Shown here: positions 2,555-62,493 of the stretch, in pieces
Layout: every line of letters starts with the position of its first letter
Position numbering within the stretch: the stretch's first letter is position 1
Assembly (NCBI GenBank): GCA_041560205.1
Contig: JBFFBV010000014.1
Location: 3,811-67,810 of the forward strand
Direction: 5' to 3'
From: Candidatus Sulfomarinibacter sp.
GTDB taxonomy: Bacteria; Acidobacteriota; Thermoanaerobaculia; Thermoanaerobaculales; Sulfomarinibacteraceae
Length of the DNA: 64,000 nucleotides
Notes under the pieces: model-generated
What the model saw: only the letters and a program-made list of their open reading frames with translations
What the model was told of the DNA's origin: nothing
Database searches by the model: none
Translations under genes and position numbers: made by a program

Positions 2555-2681
2555 CTCGTCCTCCTCGAACGGCCCGTGCCGTCATGAAGGACTTGTCCGT
2601 GACACCCCGGGTGGTAACCGGCAGAGCCACGGCCCCGAGTCGTTTTGTTCCAGCCAGGATGAGCTCACTGCTCCCCGAGGG

Positions 2682-3824
2682 TCACGGTTCTTCGCCCCTC
2701 AAGAGCCGCTCGACCAGCGCGGGAAACCACGATCCGTCCGGAACCTGAATCATCCAGCCGTTGAGGTAATAGGTCGGCGTCGCTCGAACCCCCACCATCT
2801 GCCCCAGACTCATCTGCCGGTGGACCCCGTCGATCGAAGGTGGCCGGAGATAGCACTCGCGAAACGCGGCGTCATCGAGACCGCGACCCGCGATGAAATC
2901 GATCGAAGTCGGTGTCACCAGAGAGACCTCCATCTCCCGCTGCAAGCTGTAAAAGGTCTCCTTGAAGGGGATCAGGGCTTGAGGATCCTGCAGCCCAACG
3001 CACCAGGAGGCGGTGGCGGCTCGGAATGCCCACGGGTGGATCTGGATCAGCGGATAACTCACCATGCCGTGGCGCACCTTGCCCGCGTTCTTTTTGAGGA
3101 CCATGTTGACAAGCGGCCATTTCCCCTTGCACGCGGGGCACTCGAGGTCCGAAAATTCGACGATCTCGAGGGGAGCGTTTTCGCCGGATTCGGTGTCCCA
3201 GACGACGAGGTTGCTCTCGGCCAACATCCGCCGCCGATAGGCCACCGGGTCTTCGCTGAGCGGCATCTCGGTACTGATGACCAGGTATTTTCCGTCCGAG
3301 GAGACTGCCGCCTGTCGCCGATACGTGCCGTAGCCGCTGTCGATCTTCAGATACATCGGGATCAGCGCACCAGGGCGACGCGGTCCGACATTCCACTCGA
3401 TCTCGACCTTCATGCCCATGCTCGCCTTGAGCGCTTCAGGAATGAAGCCCGACAAAAACGTGCGCAGCGCGTCCGGGCTGCCACCGGCATCTTGAAAGGG
3501 CGGCAGCTCGCCGACGCTGCCGAGCCAGATCCTATCGGCGACCTCGTCGACGAGCATCGTCGGCTTGCCGGTCAACACCTTGCTCGCGCAGGTACGCTCC
3601 ACCTCGATGCGACGGTAGGACCCAGAGGCGGTCAGAAATCGTTCGTTCGAAACGAGCTTGAACACCGAGTTCGGGTACCAGGCGACGGCCCGCTGGACGT
3701 AGCGCATGACCTTCGGCGCCGGTTCCGGTGCGGGTGGGTCCTCGCTCTGCGCCCACAGCGGAACGGCGAGAACCAACAGCAACCCTGGGCACGCACCCAA
3801 CAAATGACGCAGTCTCATCCTCAT
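2682..3824 (-). CDS. secreted DsbA-family thioredoxin-fold protein
   Basis: Signal peptide (LLLVLAVPLWAQS). C-terminal domain has 'EFSDLECPACKGKWP' (CxxC) and 'RATPTYYLNG', as in DsbA-like thiol:disulfide oxidoreductases. Confidence 0.65.
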   Translation of the reverse strand: MRMRLRHLLGACPGLLLVLAVPLWAQSEDPPAPEPAPKVMRYVQRAVAWYPNSVFKLVSNERFLTASGSYRRIEVERTCASKVLTGKPTMLVDEVADRIWLGSVGELPPFQDAGGSPDALRTFLSGFIPEALKASMGMKVEIEWNVGPRRPGALIPMYLKIDSGYGTYRRQAAVSSDGKYLVISTEMPLSEDPVAYRRRMLAESNLVVWDTESGENAPLEIVEFSDLECPACKGKWPLVNMVLKKNAGKVRHGMVSYPLIQIHPWAFRAATASWCVGLQDPQALIPFKETFYSLQREMEVSLVTPTSIDFIAGRGLDDAAFRECYLRPPSIDGVHRQMSLGQMVGVRATPTYYLNGWMIQVPDGSWFPALVERLLRGEEP

Positions 3825-3841
3825 TCACATCTCCCAACCAA

Positions 3842-3850
3842 AGTGTAGCA
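3842..3850 (-). promoter_or_regulatory. extended -10-like TGCTACACT upstream of 2682-3824
   Basis: Minus-strand TGCTACACT followed by GGGAGA SD and ATG. Member of the recurrent TGCTACAnT motif (see findings). Confidence 0.35.
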
Positions 3851-3869
3851 GCGGCGGTGGGGGCAAATT

Positions 3870-4925
3870 TTACTCGGGCGCCTCGGTCACTTCTTCTTCT
3901 GCCTCTGGTGTGGCCGCTGCGTCAGACCCCGGCAGCAGCCCCAGCGCCTCACGCAGCTTGACCTCGACCTCGCCTGCGACGTCCTGGTTCTCGCTCAAGA
4001 ACTGTCGCGCGGCCTCACGGCCCTGGCCGATCCGGGTGTCGCCGTAGGAGTACCAGGACCCCGACTTCTGGACCAGCCGGTGCTCCACCCCGAGATCGAG
4101 GAGCTCGCCGGTTAGGGAAATGCCCTCGCCGTACAGGATGTCGAACTCGGCGACCTTGAAGGGCGCGGCGACCTTGTTCTTGGCAACCTTTGCCTTGGTG
4201 CGATTGCCGACCACCTTGTCGCCCTGTTTGATGGAGCTCGTCCGCCGGATATCGATGCGAACCGACGAGTAGAACTTGAGGGCGCGGCCTCCGGTCGTGG
4301 TCTCGGGGTTGCCGAACATGACGCCGATCTTCTCCCGCACCTGGTTGATGAAGATCAGGCTCGTGTTCGATTTGGAGACGATTCCTGCGAGCTTGCGCAG
4401 CGCCTGCGACATCAGTCGTGCCTGCAATCCCATCTGCGCGTCGCCCATGTCTCCCTCGAGCTCCGACCGGGGCACCAGCGCGGCCACCGAGTCGACCACG
4501 ATGGCGTCCACCGAACCGGAGCGGATCAGCGTCTCCGCAATCTCGAGCGCCTGCTCACCGAAGTCGGGCTGCGAGATCAACAACTCTTCGAGGTTGACCC
4601 CGAGGTTGCCGGCGTAATCGGGATCCAGAGCGTGCTCGGCGTCAATGAACGCGACCAACCCGCCGGCCTTCTGGGCGTTGGCGATGATGTGGAGGGCGAG
4701 CGTCGTCTTGCCCGACGATTCCGGACCGTAGATCTCGATGACCCGCCCCCGCGGAACGCCGCCGATTCCGAGCGCCGCATCGAGGGTCAGCGAACCCGTC
4801 GGGATCACGTTGACCCGCACCTGGGGCTTCTCGCCCAGGCGCATCAGCGAGCCCTTTCCGAACTGACGCTCGATCTGACCGATGGCGGTCTCCAATGCCT
4901 TCACTTTGTCGGCCTTCTGATTCAT
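3870..4925 (-). CDS. recA: recombinase RecA
   Basis: 351 aa. '[23 protein letters not shown]', Walker A '[13 protein letters not shown]', '[38 protein letters not shown]'. Confidence 0.97.
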
Positions 4926-5301: not shown

Positions 5302-5820
5302 TCAGTCGACCGGGTATTGCTCGTCGTAGACCTTGATCACTGCGTCCGTGATGTTGGCCCCGTCGGCCACGTAGACGAGCGGCTGTGCGTTGAGCACAAA
5401 GATCGCGTCGAATCCGTTCGCCTCAGCGTACTCGCTGGCAACGCTCCCCACCCTGGTCGCCACCTGGGAGAGGAACTCGTTCTGCTTGCTCTCGAGGTCG
5501 CGGTTGAAGGCTCTCCCCGCATCCTCGAAATCGCGCCGCGCCTGCACGAGATCTCGCTCGAGCTGCGAAATGGCATCTGCCGACGCGATCGTACGCTGGG
5601 TGTTGAGCTGTTGGGTCAGCTCGGCCACGCGGTTCCGCATCGTTTCAAGCTCCTGCCGCTTGGGGCCGGCCCACGCCTCCAAGGCCTGAAGCTGACGTTG
5701 GCCCTCCTTGACCGATGCCACCGCCCGTTCCGCATCGAGGAAGCCAATGTTTCCGGCTGCCGCCGGCAGGGCGGCGCAGATCGCCAGCAGGACGATGATC
5801 GATCGCATGATGAGTCGCAT
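5302..5820 (-). CDS. OmpH/Skp-family periplasmic chaperone
   Basis: Start moved to ATG at 5820 (GGAGGTG SD 4 nt upstream). Has a signal peptide 'MRSIIVLLAICAALPAAAG' and a coiled-coil core with 'FLDAERAV...'. The C-terminus 'ANGFDAIFV...VYVADGANITDAVIKVYD' is typical of Skp. Confidence 0.75.
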   Translation of the reverse strand: MRLIMRSIIVLLAICAALPAAAGNIGFLDAERAVASVKEGQRQLQALEAWAGPKRQELETMRNRVAELTQQLNTQRTIASADAISQLERDLVQARRDFEDAGRAFNRDLESKQNEFLSQVATRVGSVASEYAEANGFDAIFVLNAQPLVYVADGANITDAVIKVYDEQYPVD

Positions 5821-5884
5821 TGCCACCTCCCGACCCGCTCGCGCACCCTGTCGTGCGTCCCGAGCAGGCTCGAATCGACCGCGG

Positions 5885-5893
5885 ATTGTAGCA
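5885..5893 (-). promoter_or_regulatory. extended -10-like TGCTACAAT for skp-like gene
   Basis: Minus-strand TGCTACAAT about 60 nt upstream of ATG 5820. Back-to-back with the plus-strand copy at 5966. Confidence 0.4.
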
Positions 5894-5965
5894 CGCCGAG
5901 GCACCGTTCCCGTGCGATGGCTCCGGCCGCGGGATCGAGACGCCAGGGTCGGCACGGGTCGTGCA

Positions 5966-5974
5966 TGCTACAGT
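5966..5974 (+). promoter_or_regulatory. extended -10-like TGCTACAGT, candidate promoter of the 6045-16200 operon
   Basis: Plus-strand TGCTACAGT about 70 nt upstream of ATG 6045. No other promoter-like element seen before 16200. Confidence 0.4.
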
Positions 5975-6044
5975 TCGGAATGACCCTCCAACGGCGTCGA
6001 GTTGCCATATCGAGAGGGTCGGAGCCGACAGAGAGACCAGACCT

Positions 6045-6890
6045 ATGCCGAGCAACGATCAGAAGCTCATATTCGCCGCGGTAGCCGCCCTGCTGGCGGT
6101 CGCTCTCGGGTGCACGTCCAGCGGTCCCAGCACCTCGCAGGCGCCTCCCGAGACCCCGGAGAGGAAGCCGCCGGCGACCGGTGCTACCGGTGGAGAGCAG
6201 GGCGAACAGGGGCGGGACGGCGGCGGCCAGGGTGGCGGCGGCACGGGCAGCGGCGCGAGTGGCGGTGAAGGATCCGAAGGATCGTCTTCGGGGCAAGATG
6301 GAGCGGCAGGCGGCGCCGGGGATTCAGCGACCGAGGGTGGGGCGTCACACCAGAGCGCTTCCGGTGGTGCCGGCCAGCCCGGCGGTTCTCCGGCCGGAAG
6401 TCAGCGTCCGGCAGGCTCCCCCACCACGGGCGACGAGGCGGCCTCCACGCTCGACGACAGGCTCAAGGGGTCGCTCGAGGAATTCGATCAACAGATGCGC
6501 GAAGAGATGGAACGCCTGGCCGAAGAAAAGGAGGCCGCAGAGGTTGCCGGCGAGCGCGCCTCCGGCAGTGAGGCGGGCTCTGCAAGCGCTTCGAGCGGGG
6601 GAGCTTCCGGAGAGTCGAGCGCCGGGAACCGATCGGCATCGGGCGGCACGGATGGGAGTGCGGAGGAGGGGGGCGATTCAGCCGGCTCCGTCGGTGGCTC
6701 GGGGCCGGGAGCATCCGGATCGGACCGGGTGCCGGCCGACGTCGGTGATGGATCAGACGACGACATCGTAGCTCGCCAGCTCCGCGAGGCCGCGATGGCC
6801 GAGGACGACCCGGAGCTGAGGGCGAAGCTGTGGGAGGAGTACCGCCGGTACAAGGCCTCGCTCGGCGCCTCGGGCAAGGACGGTGCCTGA
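6045..6890 (+). CDS. lipoprotein with long Gly/Ser/Ala/Glu-rich disordered region
   Basis: Start moved to ATG 6045. Lipobox 'LLAVALGC'. Has a low-complexity core and a conserved-looking helical tail 'DDDIVARQLREAAMAEDDPELRAKLWEEYRRYK'. Confidence 0.5.
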   Translation: MPSNDQKLIFAAVAALLAVALGCTSSGPSTSQAPPETPERKPPATGATGGEQGEQGRDGGGQGGGGTGSGASGGEGSEGSSSGQDGAAGGAGDSATEGGASHQSASGGAGQPGGSPAGSQRPAGSPTTGDEAASTLDDRLKGSLEEFDQQMREEMERLAEEKEAAEVAGERASGSEAGSASASSGGASGESSAGNRSASGGTDGSAEEGGDSAGSVGGSGPGASGSDRVPADVGDGSDDDIVARQLREAAMAEDDPELRAKLWEEYRRYKASLGASGKDGA

Positions 6891-8155
6891 TGCGACACCG
6901 GATCGGTCGACGTCGATGGCCAGTCACGGGGACGGTCCTGGCTCTTCTCCTCGGGAGCGGCTGCGCCTCGCAAAATCCCTCGGGGACAGCATCCGTGCCC
7001 GCGATTCAGGCGGCGCAGGAAATTCCTCGAGAACAACTTTTGGACGTCGGCGTCACGGTCTTCGACCCCGGCTTGCCGCCCGAAGGTCAGCCGGTGCCCG
7101 AAGACGTCTTTCCGGAGCTGCGCAAGGCGGAGGCCAGGTTCCAGGCCATCCAGCTGATGGAAACCATACAGAGCACCGGCCAGTGGGGCGCAGTCCGCGT
7201 TCTCCCGGCGGGGCACGGCACGACCGATCTCAGGGTGTCGGGAACGATCCTGCTGTCCACCGGTCTCAAGCTCGCCCTCGACATCCGTGCGGTGGACTCA
7301 CGAGGTAAGGTCTGGCTCGAGCGACGTTACCGAGCTCAGGCCGACGATCTGGCGTATATGGGCAGTGGGATCGAGAGGCGCGACCCCTTCCAGTCGATCT
7401 ACAACGAGATCTCCAACGACCTCCTCGAGGTCCGGACCAAGCTTCGCGCAGGCGAGCCGCAGGAGATCCGACAGGTCTCGAGGCTTCTCTTCGCCGCTGA
7501 TCTCGCGCCCGATATCTTCGAGGGCTATCTGACCACAAACACGAAGGGGCGGACGATCGTCAAGCGGCTGCCGGCGCGCGGCGACCCGATGATCTCGCGG
7601 GTCGACACCATCCGGGCGAGTGAAAACCTCTTCATCGACACCCTCGACCAAAACTACGCCTCGTTCTTCGCCACGATGGAGGAGCCGTACGGGAGCTGGC
7701 GCAAGTACACCTACGAGGAGGAAAAGGCCTACAAGGCGCTCAAACGCAAGGCCTTGACGCAACAGATCCTGGGTGGTCTGGCGATCCTCGGCGCCGCCCT
7801 CGCGGACCCCGGTTCGCCTGCAGCGTCGGTTGCCCGCGACGCCGCCATGATCGGCGGCATGGCCGCCATCCACGCCGGAATCGCGACCTCCAAGGAAGCC
7901 AAGATCCACGCCGAGGCGATCCGCGAGCTCGCCGCGTCGGTGGAGACCGAGCTCGAACCCGTCGTCATCGAGGTCAAGGGTCAGACCCTGCGCCTCTCGG
8001 GCTCTGCCGAGACCCAGTACGAGGAGTGGCGACGTCTGCTGCGCGAGATCTGGGCCACCGAGACCGGTCTGCCCGTGGATCCCAACCAGCCCGGTGCGAC
8101 CGTGGGCGGTGCGGCAGGCGCCAGCTCTGTGAACGACCCTCCGGGCTTGCGGTAG
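6890..8155 (+). CDS. lipoprotein, unknown function
   Basis: ATGA overlap with previous gene. 'VLALLLGSGCASQ' lipobox. Globular N-domain and C-terminal Gly/Ala-rich hydrophobic helix. Confidence 0.55.
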   Translation: MRHRIGRRRWPVTGTVLALLLGSGCASQNPSGTASVPAIQAAQEIPREQLLDVGVTVFDPGLPPEGQPVPEDVFPELRKAEARFQAIQLMETIQSTGQWGAVRVLPAGHGTTDLRVSGTILLSTGLKLALDIRAVDSRGKVWLERRYRAQADDLAYMGSGIERRDPFQSIYNEISNDLLEVRTKLRAGEPQEIRQVSRLLFAADLAPDIFEGYLTTNTKGRTIVKRLPARGDPMISRVDTIRASENLFIDTLDQNYASFFATMEEPYGSWRKYTYEEEKAYKALKRKALTQQILGGLAILGAALADPGSPAASVARDAAMIGGMAAIHAGIATSKEAKIHAEAIRELAASVETELEPVVIEVKGQTLRLSGSAETQYEEWRRLLREIWATETGLPVDPNQPGATVGGAAGASSVNDPPGLR

Positions 8156-8158
8156 GCG

Positions 8159-9256
8159 ATGGACGGAGGCAGGCACAAACCACAGCTGCAGCCCCCGCCA
8201 CGCGTGCCCGCAGCGGGGGGGGCCGACCCGGGGGCCGGTTCCAAACAACCAGGGGCGCGGACCGGCATGCAAGCCATGCGTATCGCCGCAATCGCCGCCA
8301 TGGTCCTCGCATTGATCTTCGTCTTCGTGGTCCTTCCGCGATGGCAGGAAGGGCGACAGGATCGTCTGAGGGATTCAGCCGGGCTCAAGCCGTCGCCCAA
8401 TCCACGGACACCGATTCAAGACGCGGGTCGACCCCTTCCGCCTGTGGAATCCACTCCTCTGGAGCCCAGTTCGCCACCGACTGCCACCACTACCCCGGCG
8501 CCGACACCCTACCGCCCGCCTCGGGAGAACCCGCAGCGCCAACAGTCGGCCGCCGAGCGTCAGTTCGTCGATGCCATGTCCGACGGTCTCGCGGCGCTCG
8601 AGCAACGGCAGTGGCAGGCCGCAACCGACGCCTTCGAGCGCGCGTCGCGGCTGCGCCCGGAGGCACCCGAGGTTACTGATGGGCTTGCCCGTGCGAAGGC
8701 GGGCCAGCGCTTGGAAACCATCGCCGACGGTCTCCGGCGAGCGCAATCGCTCGAGCAGCGCGAAGCGTGGCGGGAGGCCGAATCGACCTACTCGGCGGTG
8801 TTGGCGATCGATCCCGAGTCCGCGCCCGCCCTCGCAGGACAGCGCAGGACCGAGGCGCGGGCCGCTCTCGACGAGAAGCTCGAGTATCACATCGCCAACC
8901 CGGCCCGCCTCACCAACGAGGACGTCTTTGCTGACGCCTCCTCGGCCCTCGACGAGGCGATGGAGACCCTTCCGAGTGGGCCTCGGCTCGAATCGCAGGT
9001 CGGCCGTCTCGAGGCCCTCCTCGAAGAGGCTTCGACGCCGGTGCCGGTCGTCCTGGAGTCGGACGCGCTGACCGAGGTCGTGGTGTATCGCTTCGGCCGC
9101 CTGGGCACCTTCATCCGTCACGAGATCAGTCTCAAACCAGGTACCTACACCGTGGTCGGGAGCCGCAACGGCTTTCGCGACGTGCGCCTCCAGCTGGTCG
9201 TCAATCCCGGGTCTCCACCCGAGCCACTCGTGGTACGGTGCACGGAAGGTTTATGA
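8159..9256 (+). CDS. membrane-anchored protein with TPR-like helical repeats and C-terminal beta-sandwich
   Basis: TM helix 'IAAIAAMVLALIFVFVVL' (alternative start ATG 8267), Pro-rich linker, and TPR-like 'WQAATDAFERASRLRPEAPE...WREAESTYSAVLAIDPESAPA'. The tail is PEGA/CarboxypepD_reg-like: 'LKPGTYTVVGSRNGFRDVRLQLVV'. Confidence 0.5.
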   Translation: MDGGRHKPQLQPPPRVPAAGGADPGAGSKQPGARTGMQAMRIAAIAAMVLALIFVFVVLPRWQEGRQDRLRDSAGLKPSPNPRTPIQDAGRPLPPVESTPLEPSSPPTATTTPAPTPYRPPRENPQRQQSAAERQFVDAMSDGLAALEQRQWQAATDAFERASRLRPEAPEVTDGLARAKAGQRLETIADGLRRAQSLEQREAWREAESTYSAVLAIDPESAPALAGQRRTEARAALDEKLEYHIANPARLTNEDVFADASSALDEAMETLPSGPRLESQVGRLEALLEEASTPVPVVLESDALTEVVVYRFGRLGTFIRHEISLKPGTYTVVGSRNGFRDVRLQLVVNPGSPPEPLVVRCTEGL

Positions 9257-11679
9257 ACATTCTGGTGACCAGCGAGATCGGTGGGCGCCGCCACGTCTAC
9301 GCCGAGGACGACCTGCCCTTGAGCGTGGGAGGGGCCTCCTGCCACGTCGCGCTGCCCGGCCTCGCCGACGAGAGCACGGTCGCTTACCTTGGCCACGAGG
9401 ACGGCGAGCCCTTCATCCAACCGGCGGAGAAGATCCCGGCGGCGACGCCACTGAGCTGCAACGGCGTGCCACTCACCGCGTCACGGTGGTTGGGTGACGG
9501 CGACGAGATCGGCGTCGGCTACAGCCGAATTCGCTTCGAGATTTCCGGCGACACCGTCCGCATCACCGCCGTCGGCAGCGCGGCGGAAGAGCCGCCGCAT
9601 GCCTCGACGGAGGAACCCGACTCGTCAAAGGCAGCGTCGAAAGAGCGGGTCATCGATGCGGCAGACTTCCGGCCGAGGTGGCAAACACCGCCAAAGGGCT
9701 CGAGGCTGATGGTGCGCCCACGCTCGGTGCTCGTGTTTGCGGTCATCGCGCTGCTTGCATTCGGCGCGTGGTTCGTACTCACGGCACATGCCGTCCGCGT
9801 CGAGACCGAGCCCCCGGCCGACTCGATCGAGATCCGGGGCGCTTGGCTCAGGCCGAAGATCGGTGGCAGCTATCTCCTGCGTCCCGGATCCTACACGCTC
9901 CGTGCGGAGCTCGAGGGCTATCGCGGCCTCACCGCGCAACTCGAGGTCGACTCCGACACCCCATCGGTGGTGGGTTATGTCCTCGAGCCGCTGGGCGGGT
10001 TGCTGTCGGTATTTTCGGAACCGGTCGACGGTGCCGACATCAGCATCGACGGCACCGCGTCCGGCACCACCCCGGCGAGGGATATCGAGCTCGGCGCGGG
10101 TGACCACGAGGTCGAGATCACGGCGCCGCTTCATCTGCCCTACCGGACCACCCTCCGCTTCGAGCCGGGCGATCCGCCACGCGAGCTCACGGCCGAGCTG
10201 GTGCCCAATTGGGCGCCGATCACCGTGGCCAGCTCTCCGACAGGCGCCTCCGTCTCGATGGACGGAATCGGCATGGGATCGACACCACTGGAGGGGCGGG
10301 TCGAGGCCGGTGAGCGGGTTCTCGAGATCCGGCGGCCGGGTTTCAAGCCATCGGTTCGGCGTTTCGCCGTGACCGCTGGCGAGGCGATCGACCTCGGGAC
10401 CGTTCAGCTCGTGCCCGAGGACGGGCAGCTGGCAGTGGTCTCCGATCCTCCTGGGGCCACCGTGACCCTCAACGGCACCTTTCGGGGCACGACCCCAATC
10501 GAGCTCGAACTGGCACCGGGGCCGAATTACGAGATCACGGTCTCCAAAGCTGGCCACGCCACCTTCACCACCGAGGTCGGAATCTCATCGACACAGCGGA
10601 CGGAAGTGCGGGCCGAGCTCGATATGCTGACGGGCGCCGTCACGATCAGCTCACGGCCGCCTCGCGCCGAAATCCTCATCGATGGCATGGTGGTCGGCAC
10701 CACCGACCAGACCCTCGAGCTGGATGCCCGCCCTCACCAGGTGGAGGTCCGGCGGGAGGGTTACCTTCCCTTCCGTACCGTCCTCACACCCGAGCCCGGC
10801 CTGACTCAGGCGGTTCACGCGGAGCTCAAGGAAGCGGGCCCGGCAGGACTCGCCGCGGCCATCCAGACCCCCCAGGGAGGACAGTTGGTACTCGTGGGCC
10901 CGGGGCGCTTCACGATGGGCGCAGCTCGCCGCGAGCCGGGTCGACGCGCCAACGAGGTTCTGCGCGAGGTTGAAATCACCCGCCCCTTCTATCTCGGCAC
11001 GCGGGAGGTCACCAACAAGGAGTTCCGCGAGTTCCGCGCCGCGCACCGCTCGGGTTCAGCCGGCAGCTTCAACTTGGAGATCGACCATCACCCGGTTGTC
11101 AACATCACCTGGGACGATGCCGCGAGGTACTGCAATTGGCTTTCGGAACGCGCAGGCCTGCCGCCCGTCTACGTCGAGAGGGGCGGCACCATGCTCGCCC
11201 GCACTCCGTTGCCTCAAGGGTTCCGGCTGCCGACCGAGGCCGAGTGGGCCTGGGCCGCCCGCTATCCCGATTCGGCAACGGCTCGCAAGTACGCCTGGGG
11301 AGATGCTCTTCCGGTGCCTTCCGAAGCCGGCAACTACGGAGATTCGACGGGGATGTCGGTGCTGGGCGAAGCCCTTCCCAGCTACCGTGACGGCTACGGA
11401 GCCACCGCCCCGGCCGGCAGCTTCCAGGCGAACCCACTCGGGCTCTACAACCTCGGCGGTAACGTCTCGGAATGGGTCAACGATTTCTACACCGTCACAC
11501 CGACGCCGCCGAAGGAGGTCGCAAAGGACCCCATGGGACCTTCGGAGGGGGCGTACCATGTCATCAGAGGTGCGAGCTGGATGGATACCAAGATGACCGA
11601 GCTCAGGCTCAGCTATCGCGACTACGGCTACGGGGCGCGGCCCGACGTCGGTTTTCGCATCGCGCGCAGCGCGCAGTAA
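9253..11679 (+). CDS. FHA - TM - 5x PEGA - FGE-sulfatase (SUMF1/GldK-like) domain protein
   Basis: ATGA overlap at 9253. N-terminal FHA pattern 'LPLSVGGASCHVALPG...NGVPL...LGDGDEIGVGYSRIRF', then TM 'VLVFAVIALLAFGAWFVL'. Five repeats follow of the type 'ISIDGTASGTTP...LGAGDHEVEI'. C-terminus: 'RFTMGA...RPFYLGTREVTNKEF...HPVVNITWDDAARYCNWLS...RLPTEAEWAWAAR...GNVSEWVND...IRGASW'. Confidence 0.8.
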   Translation: MNILVTSEIGGRRHVYAEDDLPLSVGGASCHVALPGLADESTVAYLGHEDGEPFIQPAEKIPAATPLSCNGVPLTASRWLGDGDEIGVGYSRIRFEISGDTVRITAVGSAAEEPPHASTEEPDSSKAASKERVIDAADFRPRWQTPPKGSRLMVRPRSVLVFAVIALLAFGAWFVLTAHAVRVETEPPADSIEIRGAWLRPKIGGSYLLRPGSYTLRAELEGYRGLTAQLEVDSDTPSVVGYVLEPLGGLLSVFSEPVDGADISIDGTASGTTPARDIELGAGDHEVEITAPLHLPYRTTLRFEPGDPPRELTAELVPNWAPITVASSPTGASVSMDGIGMGSTPLEGRVEAGERVLEIRRPGFKPSVRRFAVTAGEAIDLGTVQLVPEDGQLAVVSDPPGATVTLNGTFRGTTPIELELAPGPNYEITVSKAGHATFTTEVGISSTQRTEVRAELDMLTGAVTISSRPPRAEILIDGMVVGTTDQTLELDARPHQVEVRREGYLPFRTVLTPEPGLTQAVHAELKEAGPAGLAAAIQTPQGGQLVLVGPGRFTMGAARREPGRRANEVLREVEITRPFYLGTREVTNKEFREFRAAHRSGSAGSFNLEIDHHPVVNITWDDAARYCNWLSERAGLPPVYVERGGTMLARTPLPQGFRLPTEAEWAWAARYPDSATARKYAWGDALPVPSEAGNYGDSTGMSVLGEALPSYRDGYGATAPAGSFQANPLGLYNLGGNVSEWVNDFYTVTPTPPKEVAKDPMGPSEGAYHVIRGASWMDTKMTELRLSYRDYGYGARPDVGFRIARSAQ

Positions 11680-11692
11680 TTGGAGACGAGAC

Positions 11693-11905
11693 ATGAAACC
11701 GATCAACCGATTCCTCATCATGCTTGGACTGGTGCTCGTTGTGACGGCCCTGCTGGGCACGGATGGACCGACGCCGGATGCCGGGGCCTCACCGCAGGAG
11801 GCCTCCGAGGCCGAGCAATCGACGACCGAGGAGCCGCTGCCGGAATTTCAACCCAGTGAACGGCTGCCCGCGGACAGTGCGGTCGCGTTTCCGACCGACA
11901 TCTGA
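11693..11905 (+). CDS. small secreted/membrane-anchored acidic protein
   Basis: 70 aa, N-terminal hydrophobic helix 'FLIMLGLVLVVTALLG', acidic Pro-rich tail. Sits 13 nt after the previous stop and 7 nt before the next start. Confidence 0.4.
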   Translation: MKPINRFLIMLGLVLVVTALLGTDGPTPDAGASPQEASEAEQSTTEEPLPEFQPSERLPADSAVAFPTDI

Positions 11906-11912
11906 GGCAAGC

Positions 11913-12749
11913 ATGCGTCGCACCGATACTGTCGATTTCGTTTTCCAGCTGGCGTCACTCGTTGTCGCCCTGATCATCGTCCACGCGTTCTACGTGACCT
12001 TGGTGCGACCGCGAGCTGACGCATTCTCCGCCGAGCAGGCGGCCCTGATGGCGGCCGATCCCGAGTACGTCCAGGAGCGCTCGGTGTGGGTGATCGTACG
12101 CGACTTCGAGCAGGAGGCGTGCTTCGTGCTGATGCTGTGGGCGATGGCGATCATGGCCTCCAAAGGATTGACCACGGCGCGCGAAAGCCAGCTCCTCGAG
12201 GCCGACCTGGTGCCGGTGGCGGACGGCGTACGCATCCTTCCTGAAGACTCGCGCGAGTACGCGCGCCAGGTCGAGGCCCTTCCCGCCAGTCAGCGTCGGC
12301 TCCTCCTGCCGAGGGTGGTGCTGTCCGCCTTGAGACGATTCGGTGCCACCGGCAGCATCCAGGACGCCTCGGACACGGCCCACAGCACCGCCGAGACCGA
12401 GGCGGAGCGGCTCGACTCCGAGCTGGCCATGGTGCGCTACATCGCGTGGGCCATTCCCTCGATAGGATTCATCGGCACCGTACGCGGCATCGGTGCCGCT
12501 CTCGGCCAGGCCCACCGGGCGGTCGAAGGAGACATCACGGGCGTGACACGAAACCTCGGCGTCGCCTTCAATTCGACCTTTGTCGCCCTGTTGATCTCGA
12601 TCGTCCTGATGTTCCTCCTTCACCAGCTCCAGCTGCGGCAAGAACGTCTGGTTCTCGACACCGAGGCGTACGTGGACTCGCATCTCATCCGCCATCTCCA
12701 GGCAAGCGCCGCTCAACCGAATCAGACCCAGCGCGGCGCCACGAGCTGA
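11913..12749 (+). CDS. MotA/TolQ/ExbB-family proton-channel protein
   Basis: Start moved to ATG 11913. C-terminal signature 'IAWAIPSIGFIGTVRGIGAALG...GVAFNSTFVALLISIVLMFLLHQL' matches the MotA_ExbB TM3-TM4 pattern, with two further N-terminal TM helices. Confidence 0.8.
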   Translation: MRRTDTVDFVFQLASLVVALIIVHAFYVTLVRPRADAFSAEQAALMAADPEYVQERSVWVIVRDFEQEACFVLMLWAMAIMASKGLTTARESQLLEADLVPVADGVRILPEDSREYARQVEALPASQRRLLLPRVVLSALRRFGATGSIQDASDTAHSTAETEAERLDSELAMVRYIAWAIPSIGFIGTVRGIGAALGQAHRAVEGDITGVTRNLGVAFNSTFVALLISIVLMFLLHQLQLRQERLVLDTEAYVDSHLIRHLQASAAQPNQTQRGATS

Positions 12750-12754
12750 GCGCC

Positions 12755-14101
12755 GTGAAGCAATCGGCCATCGCCCTCGAGTTGGTAGACGCCGGGCTCC
12801 AGTTCGTGAGCTCGCGAGGGCAGATCTCCAGGCCGAGCCCGGGGCTCGCCCTGGTCGAAGGCGGGGAGCTGGCGGTGGGGCTCGACGCCGAGGCTGTCGC
12901 GCGTCTCAAACCACGGCGTCTCCACAGCCGGTTCTGGCAGGACCTCGGCACCGACTCGCTGGGTCGTCCGTTCCCCGCGTATCTGAGGACCGCGGATCTC
13001 GCGCATGCCCACCTCAAGGCGACGTGGGAAGCGGACGGCGGGGACGCCGAGGAGGTCATCGTCGCGGTGCCCGGTTGCTACACCGAGGACCAGCTCTCCC
13101 TGATCTTGGGTATCGCCAGGGAGCTGGCGATCCCAGTGAGCGGTCTGGTTGACGCTGCCGTTGCCTCGGCCGCAGACCGGGAGGTCGCACCTCATTGCCT
13201 CCACCTCGACCTTCAGCTCCACCGCGCGGTGCTGACGGTGCTCGAGCACGGTGAGGAGATCACCCGTACGACCGTCCGCGTAGAGCCGCGCGTCGGTCTG
13301 CTCGGTCTTCGCGATCTCTGGGCGCGTGTCATCGCCCAGACATTCGTGCGCGCCACCCGCTTCGATCCACTCCACCTCGCGGCAACGGAACAGGTGCTTT
13401 ACGCGCAACTGGCGGCCCACCTGGAGGCGCTCATCGAAGGTGATTCGACCCAGGTAAGAATCGCATCAGGTGGACGGCAGCACGTCATCGAGCTGGAACA
13501 AGGCCGCATCGTCGATGCCGCTGCACCCGCGTACGAAACTCTTTCGACGGTGGTGAACGACCACTTGGACCCGGATAGCACCACCTTGCTGCTCAGCCAT
13601 CGTGCGGCCGCGCTGCCCGGGCTCGTCCAGCACGTCGAAGAGCGCACCAGTGCCACCGTCATCGTCCTTCATCCCGCCGCCGCCGGGAGCGGCGCGCTCG
13701 CCCACGCCGACGGGATCCGGTCGCCGGGGCCATCGGTGGCCTTCGTGACGCACCTTCCCGGCCTCGACGCGAGGCCGCCGGGCCCGGTCACCGTGCCAGT
13801 CACACCGCCGCTCGAGGACGGCCGCCATCTGCCCACCCACCTCGTCCTCGAGGGGGTGGCCCACCGGATCGAATCCAACCTGCTGATCCTGCTCCCCGAA
13901 GGCATCGAACGGGCGGAACAGGGTGAAGGCGCGACGACCGTCCGCCGCCTCGCCGGGCAGGCCGTACTCGAGGCCCCGGCCGAGGCCGGGGTGACCCTCA
14001 ACGGCGAGCCCATCGAGGGAAGGACGGCGCTGGCGCCGGGGGACCGACTTCGCCTGGCCGCTTCCGATGGGGAAATCCTCGTCGTGACCATGTCGGAGTG
14101 A
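12755..14101 (+). CDS. degenerate Hsp70/actin-fold (ASKHA) protein with C-terminal FHA domain
   Basis: GTG 12755, 5 nt after the motA-like stop. Hsp70-like blocks are 'VIVAVPGCYTEDQLSLILGIARELAIPVSGLVDAAVASA', 'LHLDLQLHRAVLTVLE' (the GGG loop is replaced) and 'LLLSHRAAALPGLVQHVEE' (the GGS loop is replaced). C-terminal FHA-like: 'HLVLEGVAHRI...VTLNGEPIEGRTALAPGDRLRL'. Confidence 0.6.
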   Translation: MKQSAIALELVDAGLQFVSSRGQISRPSPGLALVEGGELAVGLDAEAVARLKPRRLHSRFWQDLGTDSLGRPFPAYLRTADLAHAHLKATWEADGGDAEEVIVAVPGCYTEDQLSLILGIARELAIPVSGLVDAAVASAADREVAPHCLHLDLQLHRAVLTVLEHGEEITRTTVRVEPRVGLLGLRDLWARVIAQTFVRATRFDPLHLAATEQVLYAQLAAHLEALIEGDSTQVRIASGGRQHVIELEQGRIVDAAAPAYETLSTVVNDHLDPDSTTLLLSHRAAALPGLVQHVEERTSATVIVLHPAAAGSGALAHADGIRSPGPSVAFVTHLPGLDARPPGPVTVPVTPPLEDGRHLPTHLVLEGVAHRIESNLLILLPEGIERAEQGEGATTVRRLAGQAVLEAPAEAGVTLNGEPIEGRTALAPGDRLRLAASDGEILVVTMSE

Positions 14102-14104
14102 CCC

Positions 14105-15196
14105 GTGCGCGCGCGAAGTGTCACGCCCGTCGGACTGTCGTTTTTGGACGCGATGACCTGTGGATTGGGGGCGGTGATCCTCCTCTTCATGATTATCAAC
14201 GCGGCGGTTCGGGACCACTCGGTCCAGGTCACCAGCGATCTCCAGGCCGAGGTCAATCGGCTCGAGCGCGAGGTCCTGGAGGGTCACCGCAATCTGGTGG
14301 AGCTCCGCAATTCGATCCGCGAAACCGACGAGGAGCGGGTCCTGACCCAGGGTCTGGCGCTACGGTTGATCGAGAGCCTCGAGCTGATCCGTGTCGAGCT
14401 CGCGACCTTCGAGGCCTCGACTCTCGCCCGCCGCGAGCACATCAATCAGCTGCAGTCCGACCTGCGTTCGCTCGAGGAGGACGCTCGCCGCCTGTCGGCG
14501 TCGCTGCCGTCCGACGAGACGCCCGGAGACCGGGTCCGCGTCCACATCGGCGACGGTGACCGCCAGTACCTCACCGGGCTCAAGGTCGGTGGCAACCGGA
14601 TCCTTTTTCTCGTCGATGCGTCGGCGAGCATGCTCGGAAGCACGATCGTCAACGTCATCCGGCGCCGCAATCTGCCCGACAAGGACAAGGTGCGCGCCGC
14701 CAAGTGGCGACAGGCGTTGGCCACCGTCGACTGGCTCTCGACCCAGATTCCGCGAGACAGCCGATTCCAGATCTACGCCTTCAACACCACCGCCAGGCCG
14801 GTGGTGCCCGACAGCGGCGGGCAGTGGCTGGACGGTTCCGATCGCGAGGTTCTCGACGATGCTGTCGGATACATGAAAGAGGTCGTACCCGCCGACGGTA
14901 CGAGCCTGTTCCATGCCTTCGCGGCGATCTCGGAGCTCAACCCGAGACCCGACAACATCATGCTCCTGACAGACGGTCTGCCGACCGTGGGGAAGAACCC
15001 GGCACGCACCACCACGATCTCGGCCCGCCAGCGCTCGAAGCTCTTCAACCGCGCCGTCGAACAGGTGCCGCCCGGCATTCCTGTCAACGTGATCCTCTTG
15101 CCGATGGAGGGTGACCCAATGGCGGCCAGCGCCTTTTGGAAGCTGGCCATCGGCTCCCGGGGTTCGTTCATGAGCATTGCGGAGGACTGGCCGTGA
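14105..15196 (+). CDS. ExbD/TolR-like TM helix - coiled coil - VWA domain protein (paralogue 1)
   Basis: N-terminus 'RARSVTPVGLSFLDAMTCGLGAVILLFMII', then a heptad-rich segment of about 100 aa. The VWA domain has MIDAS 'LFLVDASASM', 'ADGTSL' and 'MLLTDGLPT'. Confidence 0.75.
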   Translation: MRARSVTPVGLSFLDAMTCGLGAVILLFMIINAAVRDHSVQVTSDLQAEVNRLEREVLEGHRNLVELRNSIRETDEERVLTQGLALRLIESLELIRVELATFEASTLARREHINQLQSDLRSLEEDARRLSASLPSDETPGDRVRVHIGDGDRQYLTGLKVGGNRILFLVDASASMLGSTIVNVIRRRNLPDKDKVRAAKWRQALATVDWLSTQIPRDSRFQIYAFNTTARPVVPDSGGQWLDGSDREVLDDAVGYMKEVVPADGTSLFHAFAAISELNPRPDNIMLLTDGLPTVGKNPARTTTISARQRSKLFNRAVEQVPPGIPVNVILLPMEGDPMAASAFWKLAIGSRGSFMSIAEDWP

Positions 15197-16200
15197 GGCG
15201 CGCACGTCGGGATCTCCAGGTCTTCTCGCTGTCGTTCCTGGACGTCGTCTGCTGCGGCTTCGGCGCCATCATCCTCCTGCTCGTCCTGACCAAGTTGGGC
15301 GAGCCGCAGGCGATCGAGGAAGCCCGTCGAGACCTCGACCGCCTGCTCATCGAGCTCGAGGCCGAGCTCTATGAAATCCGGGGCGAAACCGCGATTCTCG
15401 ACCGCCGGCTGCAGTCGAAGGTGGAGCAGCTGTCGGAGGAGCAGAGCCACATCGCGCGCCTGCGCGGCGATCTTTCGGAGCTCAGGGGAGAGTTCGCTGC
15501 CAGCGAGGAGCTGTCCGAGGTCCAGGACATCCTCGAGGGTCGCATGCTGGCTGCTCAACAGCAGCTCACCGAAGAGATGCGGAGGCTGCTCGAACAGAGC
15601 CGGCGACGCCGGGAACCAGAAGCGATGGTCGGCGGCATTCCGGTCGACAGCGAGTACATCATCTTCGTCATCGACACCTCGGGGTCCATGTTCCACTACG
15701 CCTGGCCCGCGGTTGTCCAAAAAATGACGCAGGTTCTCGACACCTACCCGCGGGTCAAGGGCCTACAGGTCGTGAACGACATGGGCCAGTACATGTACTC
15801 CCAGTACGCGGGGAAGTGGATCCCGGACACGCCCGGGCGCCGCAAAGCGGTGATCGCCCGGCTGCGCTCCTGGAGCGTGTTTTCGAACTCGAGCCCGGTC
15901 GAAGGCATCAACCGCGCCATCCGCACCTTCGCCAGCCCGGACTACCGAATCTCCATCTACGTTTTCGGCGACGAGTTCACCGGCACCTCGATCGATGAGG
16001 TCGTGCGCGAGGTCGACCGCCTCAACACCCGGGGCAGTGACGGGGAGCGCCGGGTCAGAATCCATGCCGTCGGCTTCCCGACCGTGTTCTCGGTCGCCGG
16101 TGCCGGACAACACACCGGGGTCCGCTTCGCCACATTGATGCGGATCCTCTGCCGCCGCAACGACGGCACCTTCGTGGGCCTCAACTCGACGAGCCCCTAG
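15193..16200 (+). CDS. ExbD/TolR-like TM helix - coiled coil - VWA domain protein (paralogue 2)
   Basis: GTGA overlap at 15193-15196. N-terminus 'RRARRDLQVFSLSFLDVVCCGFGAIILLLVL', a coiled coil, and a VWA domain with 'IIFVIDTSGSM'. Confidence 0.75.
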   Translation: MRRARRDLQVFSLSFLDVVCCGFGAIILLLVLTKLGEPQAIEEARRDLDRLLIELEAELYEIRGETAILDRRLQSKVEQLSEEQSHIARLRGDLSELRGEFAASEELSEVQDILEGRMLAAQQQLTEEMRRLLEQSRRRREPEAMVGGIPVDSEYIIFVIDTSGSMFHYAWPAVVQKMTQVLDTYPRVKGLQVVNDMGQYMYSQYAGKWIPDTPGRRKAVIARLRSWSVFSNSSPVEGINRAIRTFASPDYRISIYVFGDEFTGTSIDEVVREVDRLNTRGSDGERRVRIHAVGFPTVFSVAGAGQHTGVRFATLMRILCRRNDGTFVGLNSTSP

Positions 16201-16244
16201 CTTCATCCCCTGTCCGTCGATCAGCTTGAATTTGAGCAAGAGAT

Positions 16245-16409
16245 CCACGATGCAAGATACACGTCCATCCACCCCCACTCACGGACGCGCTTGATTCTTT
16301 TTGAAACCCGAATCCTGCATCCGGGTGTGCGGGCGGGTGGGTGCATCTTGTATCCGGGTGGGTGGACGGGCGGGTGCATCTTGGATCTGGGTCGTCGGGC
16401 GGGTCGGGG
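16245..16409. repeat. composite inverted/tandem repeat element (core GATGCAAGATACA / TGCATCTTGTATCC), copy 1
   Basis: One reverse-orientation unit (16245-16285), an AT-richer spacer, then three imperfect direct units of about 32 nt (16314-16409). TGCATCTTGTATCC lies at 16342-16355. Confidence 0.7.
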
Positions 16410-16415
16410 GGTACA

Positions 16416-17159
16416 ATGGGAGGAGTGAACGAATCTCAATCCAACCCCGACCCGATCCGGCTGTTGGTTGTCGAGGATGACGCGCCACTCGCCGATGGCC
16501 TCTGTCGCAACCTCGAGCTCGAGGGATTCGCGGTCCACCACCTGGGCACCGGCGAGGCGGCCCTGGTCGAGCTCGCCGAGCCGACGGCACAGTTCGAGCT
16601 GCTGATTCTCGACATCATGCTCCCCGGCATCGACGGCTTCGAAGTGTGCCGCCGCCTCCGCGGCGACGACAACCTCATTCCGATCCTCTTCCTCACCGCC
16701 CGCGGCAGCGATGCGGACCGCATCCTCGGCCTCCAGCTCGGAGCGGACGACTACTTGACGAAGCCTTTCCTGGTCGAGGAGCTCGTCCTGCGGGTGCGCG
16801 GAATCCTGCGACGGGCCGAATGGTCCCGCACCCCCGCCCGAACCGGACCGGTGGTGCAGGTCGGCACGAGCGAGGTGGATCTGAACACGATGCGGGCCAG
16901 CACGCCAGCGGGCGCCGTCGCGCTCACCGAGCGCGAGGTGATGCTTGTCCGTTTCTTTTCAGAGAACGACGGCCGCGTCCTGACGCGTGGTGAGCTGCTC
17001 GAGCGGGTGTGGGGATACACCTTCGACACCTCGACCCGGACGCTCGACACCTTCGTCCATCGCCTCCGCAAGCACTTCGAGGAGGACCCGCGACACCCGC
17101 TTCACTTCCACACCGTCCGCGGAGTGGGCTACCGGTTCACCTCCGAACCCGAGGAATGA
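16416..17159 (+). CDS. OmpR/PhoB-family response regulator (orphan)
   Basis: 'IRLLVVEDDAPLADGL...LLILDIMLPGIDGFEVCRRLR...PILFLTARG...LGADDYLTKPF', then a wHTH 'LTEREVMLVRFF...LTRGELLERVWGY...RTLDTFVHRLRKHF...TVRGVGYRF'. Confidence 0.9.
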   Translation: MGGVNESQSNPDPIRLLVVEDDAPLADGLCRNLELEGFAVHHLGTGEAALVELAEPTAQFELLILDIMLPGIDGFEVCRRLRGDDNLIPILFLTARGSDADRILGLQLGADDYLTKPFLVEELVLRVRGILRRAEWSRTPARTGPVVQVGTSEVDLNTMRASTPAGAVALTEREVMLVRFFSENDGRVLTRGELLERVWGYTFDTSTRTLDTFVHRLRKHFEEDPRHPLHFHTVRGVGYRFTSEPEE

Positions 17160-19034: not shown

Positions 19035-20429
<1,395 letters not shown>

Positions 20430-20433
20430 GTCA

Positions 20434-23795
<3,362 letters not shown>

Positions 23796-28022: not shown

Positions 28023-28031
28023 TGCTACTCT
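28023..28031 (+). promoter_or_regulatory. extended -10-like TGCTACTCT; predicts a leaderless transcript for 28039
   Basis: TGCTACTCT ends 7 nt before ATG 28039, and there is no SD. Confidence 0.35.
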
Positions 28032-35186: not shown

Positions 35187-35195
35187 ACTGTAGCA
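35187..35195 (-). promoter_or_regulatory. extended -10-like TGCTACAGT for 34443-35135 / 33127-34428
   Basis: Minus-strand TGCTACAGT about 50 nt upstream of ATG 35135. Confidence 0.35.
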
Positions 35196-58190: not shown

Positions 58191-58199
58191 ATCGTAGCA
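58191..58199 (-). promoter_or_regulatory. extended -10-like TGCTACGAT upstream of barrel paralogue 2
   Basis: Minus-strand TGCTACGAT 47 nt upstream of ATG 58143. Confidence 0.35.
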
Positions 58200-62484: not shown

Positions 62485-62493
62485 AGTGTAGCA
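62485..62493 (-). promoter_or_regulatory. extended -10-like TGCTACACT upstream of the ATPase remnant/GNAT
   Basis: Minus-strand TGCTACACT about 90 nt upstream of ATG 62398. Confidence 0.3.

Follow-up and report, generated by a model that had tools for sequence, protein, structure and literature searches.

The question raised by this locus is whether nine adjacent genes of a marine Acidobacteriota bacterium encode an ion-driven envelope motor and, if they do, whether that motor belongs to a type that has already been described. The genes lie at positions 6045 to 16200, on the forward strand, of a 64,000-nucleotide (nt) stretch of DNA from Candidatus Sulfomarinibacter sp. (contig JBFFBV010000014.1), which is referred to here as the window and has a G+C content of about 65%. 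Ion-driven motors with a 5:2 subunit arrangement power flagella, nutrient import, outer-membrane maintenance, gliding and phage defence. The region is a genuine nine-gene envelope operon, and its genes, named g1 to g9 in order, include one channel subunit of the MotA/TolQ/ExbB type (g6) and two membrane-anchored proteins with von Willebrand factor A (VWA) heads (g8 and g9). An earlier note on this DNA had proposed an undescribed motor made of one MotA/ExbB-like channel and two ExbD/TolR-like subunits. We consider it moderately probable that the core is a proton channel formed by g6 together with a g8/g9 pair, inserted with the N-termini in the cytoplasm, that replaces TolR, ExbD or MotB in a nine-gene machine.

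The channel subunit and the VWA pair

The three core genes are as follows.

g6: 11913-12749, forward strand; MotA/TolQ/ExbB-type channel subunit with four hydrophobic segments
g8 (VWA1): 14105-15196, forward strand; basic cytoplasmic N-terminus, transmembrane (TM) helix, helical stalk to about residue 133, linker and VWA head
g9 (VWA2): 15193-16200, forward strand; SFLD start (D17), coiled coil and VWA head with the metal ion-dependent adhesion site (MIDAS) sequence DTSGS

To determine how widely these genes are kept together, relatives of g8 were scanned with one genome per species, which gave 449 genomes, and the best 80 loci, mostly from Acidobacteriota, were taken for synteny. The closest relatives are metagenome-assembled genomes (MAGs) of Candidatus Sulfomarinibacteraceae and Thermoanaerobaculia (Acidobacteriota), with g8 identities of 84-87%. 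Orthologues detected by tblastn, with order and strand kept, were present for g8 and g9 in all 80 loci, for g7 in 76, g6 in 73, g4 in 68, g3 in 63, g2 in 58 and g1 in 55, and most of the absences correspond to contig ends. For the small g5 gene tblastn is not sensitive enough and gave 27 loci only; direct extraction of open reading frames (ORFs) recovered it in 62/68 loci. Two cultured members of the Gammaproteobacteria, Aestuariicella hydrocarbonica (GCA_011602365.1) and Pseudohalioglobus lutimaris (GCA_002866825.1), likewise carry all nine genes with order kept, at identities of 25-59%. g8 and g9 are adjacent and occur together in 80/80 loci, and clustering at the 50% level leaves 1293 representatives of the g8 family. 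Co-conservation in other genomes had been set beforehand as a test of the motor proposal, and the 80 loci and the two Gammaproteobacteria bear it out strongly. As far as was found, the conservation of a nine-gene module between Acidobacteriota and Gammaproteobacteria, beyond the three-gene core, seems to be new.

The assignment of g6 to the MotA/TolQ/ExbB channels, already made in the earlier note, was confirmed by a match to Pfam MotA_ExbB (PF01618) at E = 1.4e-13 (51.1 bits, cut-off 22.9). Among structures, the protein matched 8odt and 9kpz (both TolQ) at E = 0.03. Its scores against the TolQ and ExbB equivalog models were far under the cut-offs, and g6 is therefore no orthologue of either protein. 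Both pore threonines, T189 (in GTV) and T222 (in NST), which correspond to T145 and T178 of TolQ, are kept in all sampled orthologues, and g6 bears an additional N-terminal hydrophobic segment relative to E. coli TolQ and ExbB. In each locus g6 is the sole MotA/TolQ-like gene, and in 73/73 loci that have a g6 orthologue only g7 separates it from g8 downstream.

A MotA-like channel could also be the sensor motor of a Zorya-type anti-phage defence system, and PADLOC did give ZorA matches to g6. These matches are weak (E = 0.004 and 0.012) and span the shared MotA domain only, and neither ZorB, ZorC, ZorD or any further Zor component nor a nuclease or other effector was found in the operon by Pfam and PADLOC. 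The module is found with its synteny kept and a vertical-looking spread across phyla, near the housekeeping genes recA and skp and in no defence island. The defence reading was rejected on these grounds, and we regard it as exceedingly unlikely.

The g8 and g9 proteins are paralogues with 27% identity, and they have in common the N-terminal motif S-F-L-D-x3-C-G-x-G-A. Each contains one TM segment (residues 13-31 in g8 and 15-33 in g9), and an aspartate, D15 in g8 and D17 in g9, is located in the SFLD sequence at the cytoplasmic end of the helix. This residue, which the earlier note had seen at the start of the helix, is invariant in 80/80 g8 orthologues, in 73/73 g9 orthologues and in 88/88 full-length representatives of distant clusters, down to 32% identity. 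The SHLS motif occurs in none of the TM helices listed for distant representatives. The MIDAS of g8 consists of D171-x-S-x-S, T266 and D290, and neither paralogue shows variation at the DxSxS, T and D positions. The AlphaFold2 model of g8 contains helices at residues 13-69, 75-101 and 107-133 with two short breaks, followed by a linker and a VWA domain whose predicted local distance difference test (pLDDT) score is 80-90, and Foldseek matched this domain to VWA structures at E = 1e-8 to 1e-6. The sequence, the model and the structural matches agree with the previous description of two TM-coiled-coil-VWA paralogues with a MIDAS. If the approximately 100 helical residues form a coiled coil, the stalk is estimated to be about 15 nm long.

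The earlier note had further described the g8 and g9 helices as ExbD/TolR-like. Pfam ExbD (PF02472) did not match the full-length proteins or 10 N-terminal fragments at E <= 10. When the helix was compared with ExbD/TolR by hhalign, aspartate was aligned on aspartate, but with E = 0.054 and a probability of 1%. The periplasmic part of both proteins consists of a coiled coil and a VWA domain and does not have the alpha/beta domain of ExbD/TolR. Searches by phmmer with E. coli TolR and ExbD (E <= 1e-3) detected no homologue either in the 64-kb window or across 82 loci (about 1.4 Mb), and neither TonB, TolA, TolR, ExbD, MotB nor an OmpA-like partner was found among the operon products (by Pfam, and by phmmer for TolR and ExbD). 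The lack of TonB, TolA and an OmpA/peptidoglycan-binding partner had been observed correctly from the start. Since none of the Pfam, hidden Markov model (HMM) and hhalign comparisons was significant, homology of the helix to ExbD/TolR was dropped and the functional analogy was retained: the aspartate is conserved in orthologues as expected, but the likeness is one of pattern and not of profile. The g8/g9 pair looks as if it works like TolR/ExbD, yet it cannot be classified in that family.

The same result favours a reading in which there is no motor, g8 and g9 being a scaffold or chaperone of the Bat/MoxR-VWA type, g6 a channel with a separate function or with unlinked partners, and the aspartate a residue for helix packing or metal binding. 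Like Bat operons, this operon encodes membrane-anchored VWA proteins and a tetratricopeptide repeat (TPR) protein, and the VWA domain resembles, among many VWA matches, an aerotolerance-related membrane protein of B. fragilis. However, no MoxR AAA+ gene, DUF58 gene or BatC-E-like set is encoded by the nine genes, and Bat operons in turn lack a MotA-like channel, and the SFLD aspartate helix and the coiled coil are missing from the VWA proteins they encode. An aspartate kept invariant in a TM helix across phyla and in both paralogues would be costly unless it were functional, and g6, g8 and g9 are held in strict proximity with translational coupling. Orphan MotA/TolQ channels are otherwise atypical according to PMC12204202. 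We therefore consider the absence of a motor improbable.

A motor core of g6, g8 and g9 can be compared directly with the ExbB-ExbD-TonB and MotA-MotB 5:2 motors. The channel family is the same, and in all of them a single-pass partner carries an essential-looking aspartate at the cytoplasmic end of its helix. In contrast to the homodimeric partners of those motors, the partner here would be a heterodimer of paralogues with no ExbD Pfam match, and TonB, a peptidoglycan-binding domain and a plug helix are lacking.

The core corresponds closely to a class that was predicted in 2025 (Mol Biol Evol; PMC12204202, section 8, Fig. 4c-d), and this paper was the only description found in literature searches for the gene set. 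There, a family of TM-tethered vWA proteins is reported to show very tight co-occurrence with tolQ and no tolR or exbD. The vWA genes occur mostly as heterologous pairs and have a TolR/ExbD-like trans-pore helix with a conserved aspartate, and AlphaFold 3 models put the aspartate pair inside the conserved threonine ring of a TolQ-like pentamer (PMC12204202). The class is said there to be found mainly in Proteobacteria and Verrucomicrobia, and a role in gliding is speculated upon.

The features shared with this class are the single-N-terminal-TM VWA proteins g8 and g9, whose VWA fold was confirmed; their close linkage to a tolQ/motA/exbB homologue (g6); the absence of tolR, exbD and motB from the synteny; the VWA genes as a heterologous pair; and the conserved helix aspartate, the lack of SHLS and the threonine ring kept in the channel. 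What differs is the occurrence in Acidobacteriota, in this locus and 80 relatives mostly of that phylum, and the co-conservation of six accessory genes, of which the available part of the text of PMC12204202 makes no mention. These six partner genes appear to be undescribed. The interpretation in the earlier note, reached independently of the 2025 paper, was thus largely right in substance, but its "undescribed" composition appears to hold for the accessory module and does not hold for the core.

Several points weigh against a motor of this kind. An HMM of the g8/g9 family gave no match to E. coli TolR or ExbD at E <= 100; with no profile similarity, a common origin with ExbD/TolR is unproven and the aspartate could serve another role. 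In an alignment with E. coli TolQ and ExbB, g6 has a valine where TolQ has E173 (ExbB E176). The stalk has low pLDDT in the AlphaFold2 monomer of g8. The published class is known by computer prediction alone, without a phenotype, in the part of PMC12204202 that describes it, and the core is a member of that class by its features, the Idiomarina loihiensis references having been compared by description only.

The accessory proteins and the proposed machine

The remaining six genes are as follows.

g1: 6045-6890, forward strand; lipoprotein with lipobox ...VALGC and a long Gly/Ser/Glu-rich low-complexity linker
g2: 6890-8155, forward strand; lipoprotein with lipobox LGSGC, an N-terminal alpha/beta domain, a helical hairpin and a small C-terminal domain
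g3: 8159-9256, forward strand; membrane protein that crosses the membrane once, with TPR repeats in the periplasm and a beta-rich domain at the C-terminus
g4: 9253-11679, forward strand; degenerate FHA-like cytoplasmic N-terminus, one TM helix, five PEGA domains and a domain of the FGE-sulfatase fold
g5: 11693-11905, forward strand; small secreted acidic protein of 70 amino acids (aa) with a signal-peptide-like N-terminus and a variable linker
g7: 12755-14101, forward strand; cytoplasmic protein with a putative ASKHA domain like the Hsp70 nucleotide-binding domain (NBD) and a putative C-terminal FHA domain

The lipoboxes of g1 and g2 confirm the two lipoproteins that had been called previously. 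No Pfam or NCBIfam family was found for g1, and its conservation (53-88% identity, Gammaproteobacteria included) is confined to an acidic, helical C-terminal region of about 45 aa with the motif DDDIVARQLREAA..DPELR.KLWEEYR.YK. The small protein g5 had no family in any profile library searched. It ends in ...F.P(S/T)E.(L/V)PADSA(V/I)(S/A)FP(V/T)DI-COOH, and an ORF ending in FP(V/T)DI is located between g4 and g6 in 62/68 loci, those of Gammaproteobacteria among them. Conservation of g5 is limited to its last 20 residues, in which F-19, P-17, E-15, F-5, P-4, D-2 and I-1 are invariant or nearly so over the 62 loci. As far as was found, a lipoprotein with a disordered linker that is conserved solely in an acidic C-terminus of about 45 residues seems to be new, as does a predicted secreted peptide with an invariant FP(V/T)DI C-terminus.

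The TM segment of g3 spans residues 42-60. Its TPR_2 and TPR_1 matches are below the cut-offs, a weak CarboxypepD_reg match is located at the C-terminus, and orthologues were found in L081 and L082 in addition to the 63 loci given above. In g4, Pfam matched PEGA in 5 stretches (E = 1.1e-52) and FGE-sulfatase (E = 1.2e-47). The segment RGASWMDTKMTELRLSYRDYG, which we take to be the counterpart of the catalytic-cysteine motif of true FGE, contains no cysteine. The five PEGA domains and the FGE domain of the protein drawn in the earlier note as FHA-TM-5xPEGA-FGE are thus confirmed, but its N-terminus is FHA-like only. This region matched FHA domains of the PDB at E = 0.2-1.2 only and lacks the canonical FHA GR and SxxH residues; it aligned with the g7 FHA region by hhalign at E = 4.7e-5 (probability 68%), and it is 37% identical to a Pfam-annotated FHA domain in the distant locus L085. 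Gammaproteobacterial g4 orthologues are without the FHA-like N-terminus.

The FGE domain of g4 is the point at which a surface motility or adhesion machine comes into consideration, one that would move VWA adhesin heads or a GldK-like ring of the FGE fold in the manner of Myxococcus Agl-Glt or the type IX secretion system (T9SS). In the T9SS, as here, an FGE-sulfatase-fold periplasmic protein (GldK/PorK) is encoded beside an ion-driven motor (GldLM/PorLM), and GldK is the best NCBIfam match of the g4 domain. The resemblance noted earlier holds at the domain level, but the score is 113 bits against a cut-off of 350, and GldL, GldM and GldN are not matched. In addition, g4 is an inner-membrane protein with PEGA repeats and not a GldK lipoprotein, and the motor is of the MotA family and not of the GldL family. 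The AglR-AglQ-AglS motor of Myxococcus likewise has one channel and two different partners, and the associated Glt machinery includes a VWA protein, CglB, and FHA-containing components. There, however, AglQ and AglS are homologous to TolR, the VWA adhesin is a lipoprotein of its own in the outer membrane, and no Glt genes are present here. The occurrence of a MotA-like channel with VWA domains in this operon, the role of CglB as a VWA adhesin in Agl-Glt and the speculation on gliding in PMC12204202 speak for a motility machine. On the other hand, the operon contains no gene for a secretin or an outer-membrane barrel, and the VWA heads, being tethered to the inner membrane, have no encoded route across the outer membrane. 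A motility machine is in our view very doubtful. Membership in the Bat, T9SS and Agl-Glt systems was rejected, as their defining genes are missing by Pfam and NCBIfam.

Neither Pfam nor a PDB sequence search gave a match for g2, whose family consists of 927 homologues, all unnamed, and whose gammaproteobacterial orthologues are 40-42% identical to it. In its AlphaFold2 model (pLDDT 77.5) the N-domain leads into a long helical hairpin whose tip is hydrophobic and Gly-rich. Foldseek matched the N-domain to TolB at E = 6.8e-4 and to LptE at E = 8.9e-4; the match is weak, with a TM-score of 0.2 for TolB, and the TM-scores are low because just one domain matches. As far as was found, a lipoprotein with a domain modelled as TolB-N/LptE-like seems to be new.

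With g2 and g3 in place, the parts list can be set beside that of Tol-Pal (TolQ-TolR-TolA-TolB-Pal-CpoB). Common to both are the MotA/TolQ channel with pore threonines, the partner with an aspartate helix, a periplasm-spanning helix, and lipoproteins, a TPR protein and a TolB-N-like domain in one operon. Here, in contrast, there is no TolR/ExbD-family protein, no TolA/TonB C-terminal domain, no SHLS motif and no Pal/OmpA-type peptidoglycan-binding domain, TolQ E173 is not retained, and the roles of rotor and force transducer would be fused in g8/g9, which end in VWA heads. Because the parts lists run parallel, Tol-like envelope maintenance is the most concrete guess at a function; adhesion or gliding is less likely than such a role, and defence is unlikely.

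A narrower reading follows from this likeness, in which the same motor core serves tethering or outer-membrane maintenance in the Tol-Pal manner, moving or releasing g1 and g2 with a CpoB-like g3, and has no part in adhesion or motility. The parallel with tolQ-tolR-tolA-tolB-pal-cpoB speaks for it, as do the TolB-like N-domain of g2, the two lipoproteins and the TPR protein, the Skp/OmpH chaperone gene that adjoins the operon upstream, and the stable chromosomal context with conservation across phyla. The TolB-like match is, however, weak and confined to one domain, and a Pal/OmpA-type domain was not found by Pfam in the nine products. This version, which is a refinement of the best explanation and not its replacement, is unlikely to be correct as it stands.

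In terms of regulation, the protein of interest is g7. The single sequence gave no Pfam or PDB match. A profile of 38 orthologues matched FHA domains with its C-terminus (Afadin at 1.9e-6, Rv0020c at 2.5e-5 and EmbR at 4.4e-5, with a range to 1e-4) and Hsp70 NBDs with positions 72-307 (SSE1, DnaK and BiP at E = 1e-4 to 2e-2, SSE1 and DnaK at about 1e-4); the g7 orthologue in L085 is annotated with FHA by Pfam. In the alignment, the first aspartate (D12) is invariant and the Gly-rich phosphate loops are absent, and a pseudo-ATPase is a plausible reading of g7 from these residues. The phosphothreonine (pThr)-binding loop of the FHA domain (RG...SRxH...NG) is canonical in most orthologues. In the Sulfomarinibacteraceae clade it is deleted or degenerate (window 13750-14101, and loci L001, L007, L008, L011 and L014). 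The Hsp70-fold protein with an FHA domain that the earlier note had described is therefore supported at the family-profile level, but in this lineage its pThr-binding loop is deleted.

Two Ser/Thr kinase (Pkinase) genes flank the core in L085, a distant member, at 1834-4410 and 13023-16964. The canonical FHA domain in most g7 proteins, these kinases beside the core and the degenerate FHA region of g4 point to regulation of the system by Ser/Thr phosphorylation, which would have decayed in the present lineage. As far as was found, the kinases beside the core in one distant member and the loss of the FHA loop in this lineage seem to be new observations. One of the L085 kinases is fused to Laminin_G, FGE-sulfatase and Lectin_C domains, and a gene for an FHA-ABC transporter is located nearby. 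Within the window itself, the sole Hanks-type catalytic-loop motif, HRDIKPGN, is located at 52152 (forward strand), 36 kb from the operon.

The analysis shows the domain make-up, the invariant residues, the lack of TolR/ExbD and the joint conservation of the genes; a 5:2 assembly, a drive by the proton-motive force, the ligands and the biological role are inferred. If the core is a motor, five g6 subunits would surround the pair of g8 and g9 helices in a 5:2 arrangement, and proton flow through the aspartates and the threonine ring would turn or pull the pair. The coiled-coil stalk, of about 100-120 residues, would pass the work to the VWA heads toward the peptidoglycan or the outer membrane, where the heads, in the periplasm or at the outer membrane, may grip an acidic ligand through the MIDAS. 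MIDAS sites bind acidic side chains, and for this reason the acidic C-terminus of g5, the acidic C-terminal helix of g1 and the TolB-N/LptE-like lipoprotein g2 are obvious candidates for ligands or partners. The TPR protein g3 and the PEGA protein g4, with its non-catalytic FGE fold, may be periplasmic scaffolds, and g7 may be a cytoplasmic adaptor that in other lineages probably couples the machine to Ser/Thr-kinase signalling. We propose tentatively, as a possible reading of the whole operon, a self-contained trans-envelope machine driven by the proton-motive force, in which a VWA-heterodimer rotor pulls, through its MIDAS sites, on the C-terminus of g5 and/or the C-terminal helix of g1, while g2, g3 and g4 form a scaffold and g7 is a kinase-responsive gate.

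Operon layout, boundaries and neighbouring genes

The nine genes are separated by gaps of 3-13 nt or joined by short overlaps, and the sequence thus confirms the packing of nine same-strand ORFs that had been pointed out. The starts of g4, g6, g7, g8 and g9 (9253, 11913, 12755, 14105 and 15193) are the same as those of public gene calls for identical proteins. The junctions are as follows.

g1/g2: TGATG, 1-nt overlap at 6890
g2/g3: gap of 3 nt
g3/g4: ATGA, 4-nt overlap
g4/g5: gap of 13 nt with GGAGA inside
g5/g6: gap of 7 nt
g6/g7: gap of 5 nt
g7/g8: gap of 3 nt
g8/g9: GTGA, 4-nt overlap

Of the 4-nt overlaps listed in the earlier note, those at 9253 (ATGA) and 15193 (GTGA) are as described, but the one at 6890 is the 1-nt overlap given above. 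The features that border the operon are the following.

5966-5974, forward strand; candidate extended -10 promoter, TGCTACAGT, 71 nt upstream of the g1 start
16242-16390, no strand assigned; block of inverted and direct repeats with TGCATCTTG(T/G)ATC units, from the g9 stop to the response-regulator gene

In terms of the promoter, the general pattern TGNTANNNT occurs 15 times in the window against 14.6 expected, which is the chance level, and a generic sigma-70 promoter scan found nothing. The narrower pattern TGCTACNNT, which was picked after the matches had been viewed, occurs 7 times against 1.3 expected, at 3842-3850(-), 5885-5893(-), 5966-5974(+), 28023-28031(+), 35187-35195(-), 58191-58199(-) and 62485-62493(-). 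Each copy is in the correct orientation and is followed, at a distance of 15-110 nt, by a plausible start codon, and close relatives have a similar element some 80 nt upstream of g1. From its occurrences, TGCTACNNT is probably the extended -10 consensus of this organism. The enrichment, the placement and the positional conservation make a promoter at 5966, as first suggested, a reasonable guess.

The divergent upstream neighbour is a Skp/OmpH-like gene (window 5302-5955, reverse strand), with recA beyond it. The true Skp/OmpH start may be located about 140 nt downstream of the GTG at 5955 that begins the longest ORF, to judge from the element TGCTACAAT at 5885-5893(-) and from an ATG near 5812 that has a Shine-Dalgarno-like sequence. 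With a start near 5812, this gene and the operon would have divergent promoters within one common gap of about 230 nt.

Downstream, the repeats exist and the block folds with a z-score of -3.5, but it does not close the operon as had been assumed. A scan for an intrinsic terminator after g9 found no convincing site and no U-tract, with hits in the region at chance level. The gene that follows (16416-17159) encodes a response regulator of the OmpR type with Response_reg and Trans_reg_C domains. Copies of TGCATCTTG are located at 16342, 16375, 17224 (reverse), 17300, 17333 and 20104 of the window, where pairs with a spacing of 33 nt flank the regulator gene, and the same motif occurs in pairs downstream of g9 in three related loci (L001-L003). 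Because the motif recurs across the regulator gene, the repeats are read as operators of the regulator, which they probably are on the strength of this placement, and not as a terminator of the operon. An intrinsic terminator after g9 was accordingly rejected. The response regulator is syntenic in the closest family only and was rejected as a part of the module for this reason. Farther downstream, two long ORFs overlap, one of 750 aa on the forward strand (20341-22593) and one of 710 aa on the reverse strand (20434-22566), and the product of the forward ORF had no Pfam match.

Some variation was observed among the related loci. Loci of the gammaproteobacterial type carry two extra lipoproteins of about 230 aa after VWA2 (L081 12312-15560; L082 12077-14859; L086 4404-5749), of which only the first was found in L080 (about 6040-6610), and in L081 and L082 these are followed by an M48 peptidase. 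Neither the extra lipoproteins nor the peptidase was found in the Acidobacteriota loci. The MAG CBDCYI01 has two paralogous copies of the module (L051 and L055), and the L055 copy is without g7 between the MotA-like gene and VWA1; g7 was likewise not detectable in L050 and L069. Four loci come from MAGs labelled as Deltaproteobacteria (L001, JAIVTZ010000008.1), Gemmatimonadetes (L039), Polyangiaceae (L060) and Steroidobacteraceae (L080), and they are 56-87% identical to Acidobacteriota loci. The odd labels may stem from wrongly labelled bins or from a horizontal transfer of the module.

Meaning for the family and its carriers

The locus extends the predicted class into Acidobacteriota and presents it as a nine-gene module that is conserved between phyla. 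To the channel and the VWA pair the module adds plausible ligands (g5, g1 and g2) and a candidate cytoplasmic FHA regulator, so that the abstract prediction of 2025 becomes a concrete and testable set of interactions. Aestuariicella hydrocarbonica and Pseudohalioglobus lutimaris are cultured carriers in which genetics could be attempted. If a VWA pair does act as the rotor, energy from the inner membrane would reach the envelope by a new route, and if the nine genes do form a machine driven by the proton-motive force, that machine would join Ton, Tol and Mot as a fourth functional type.

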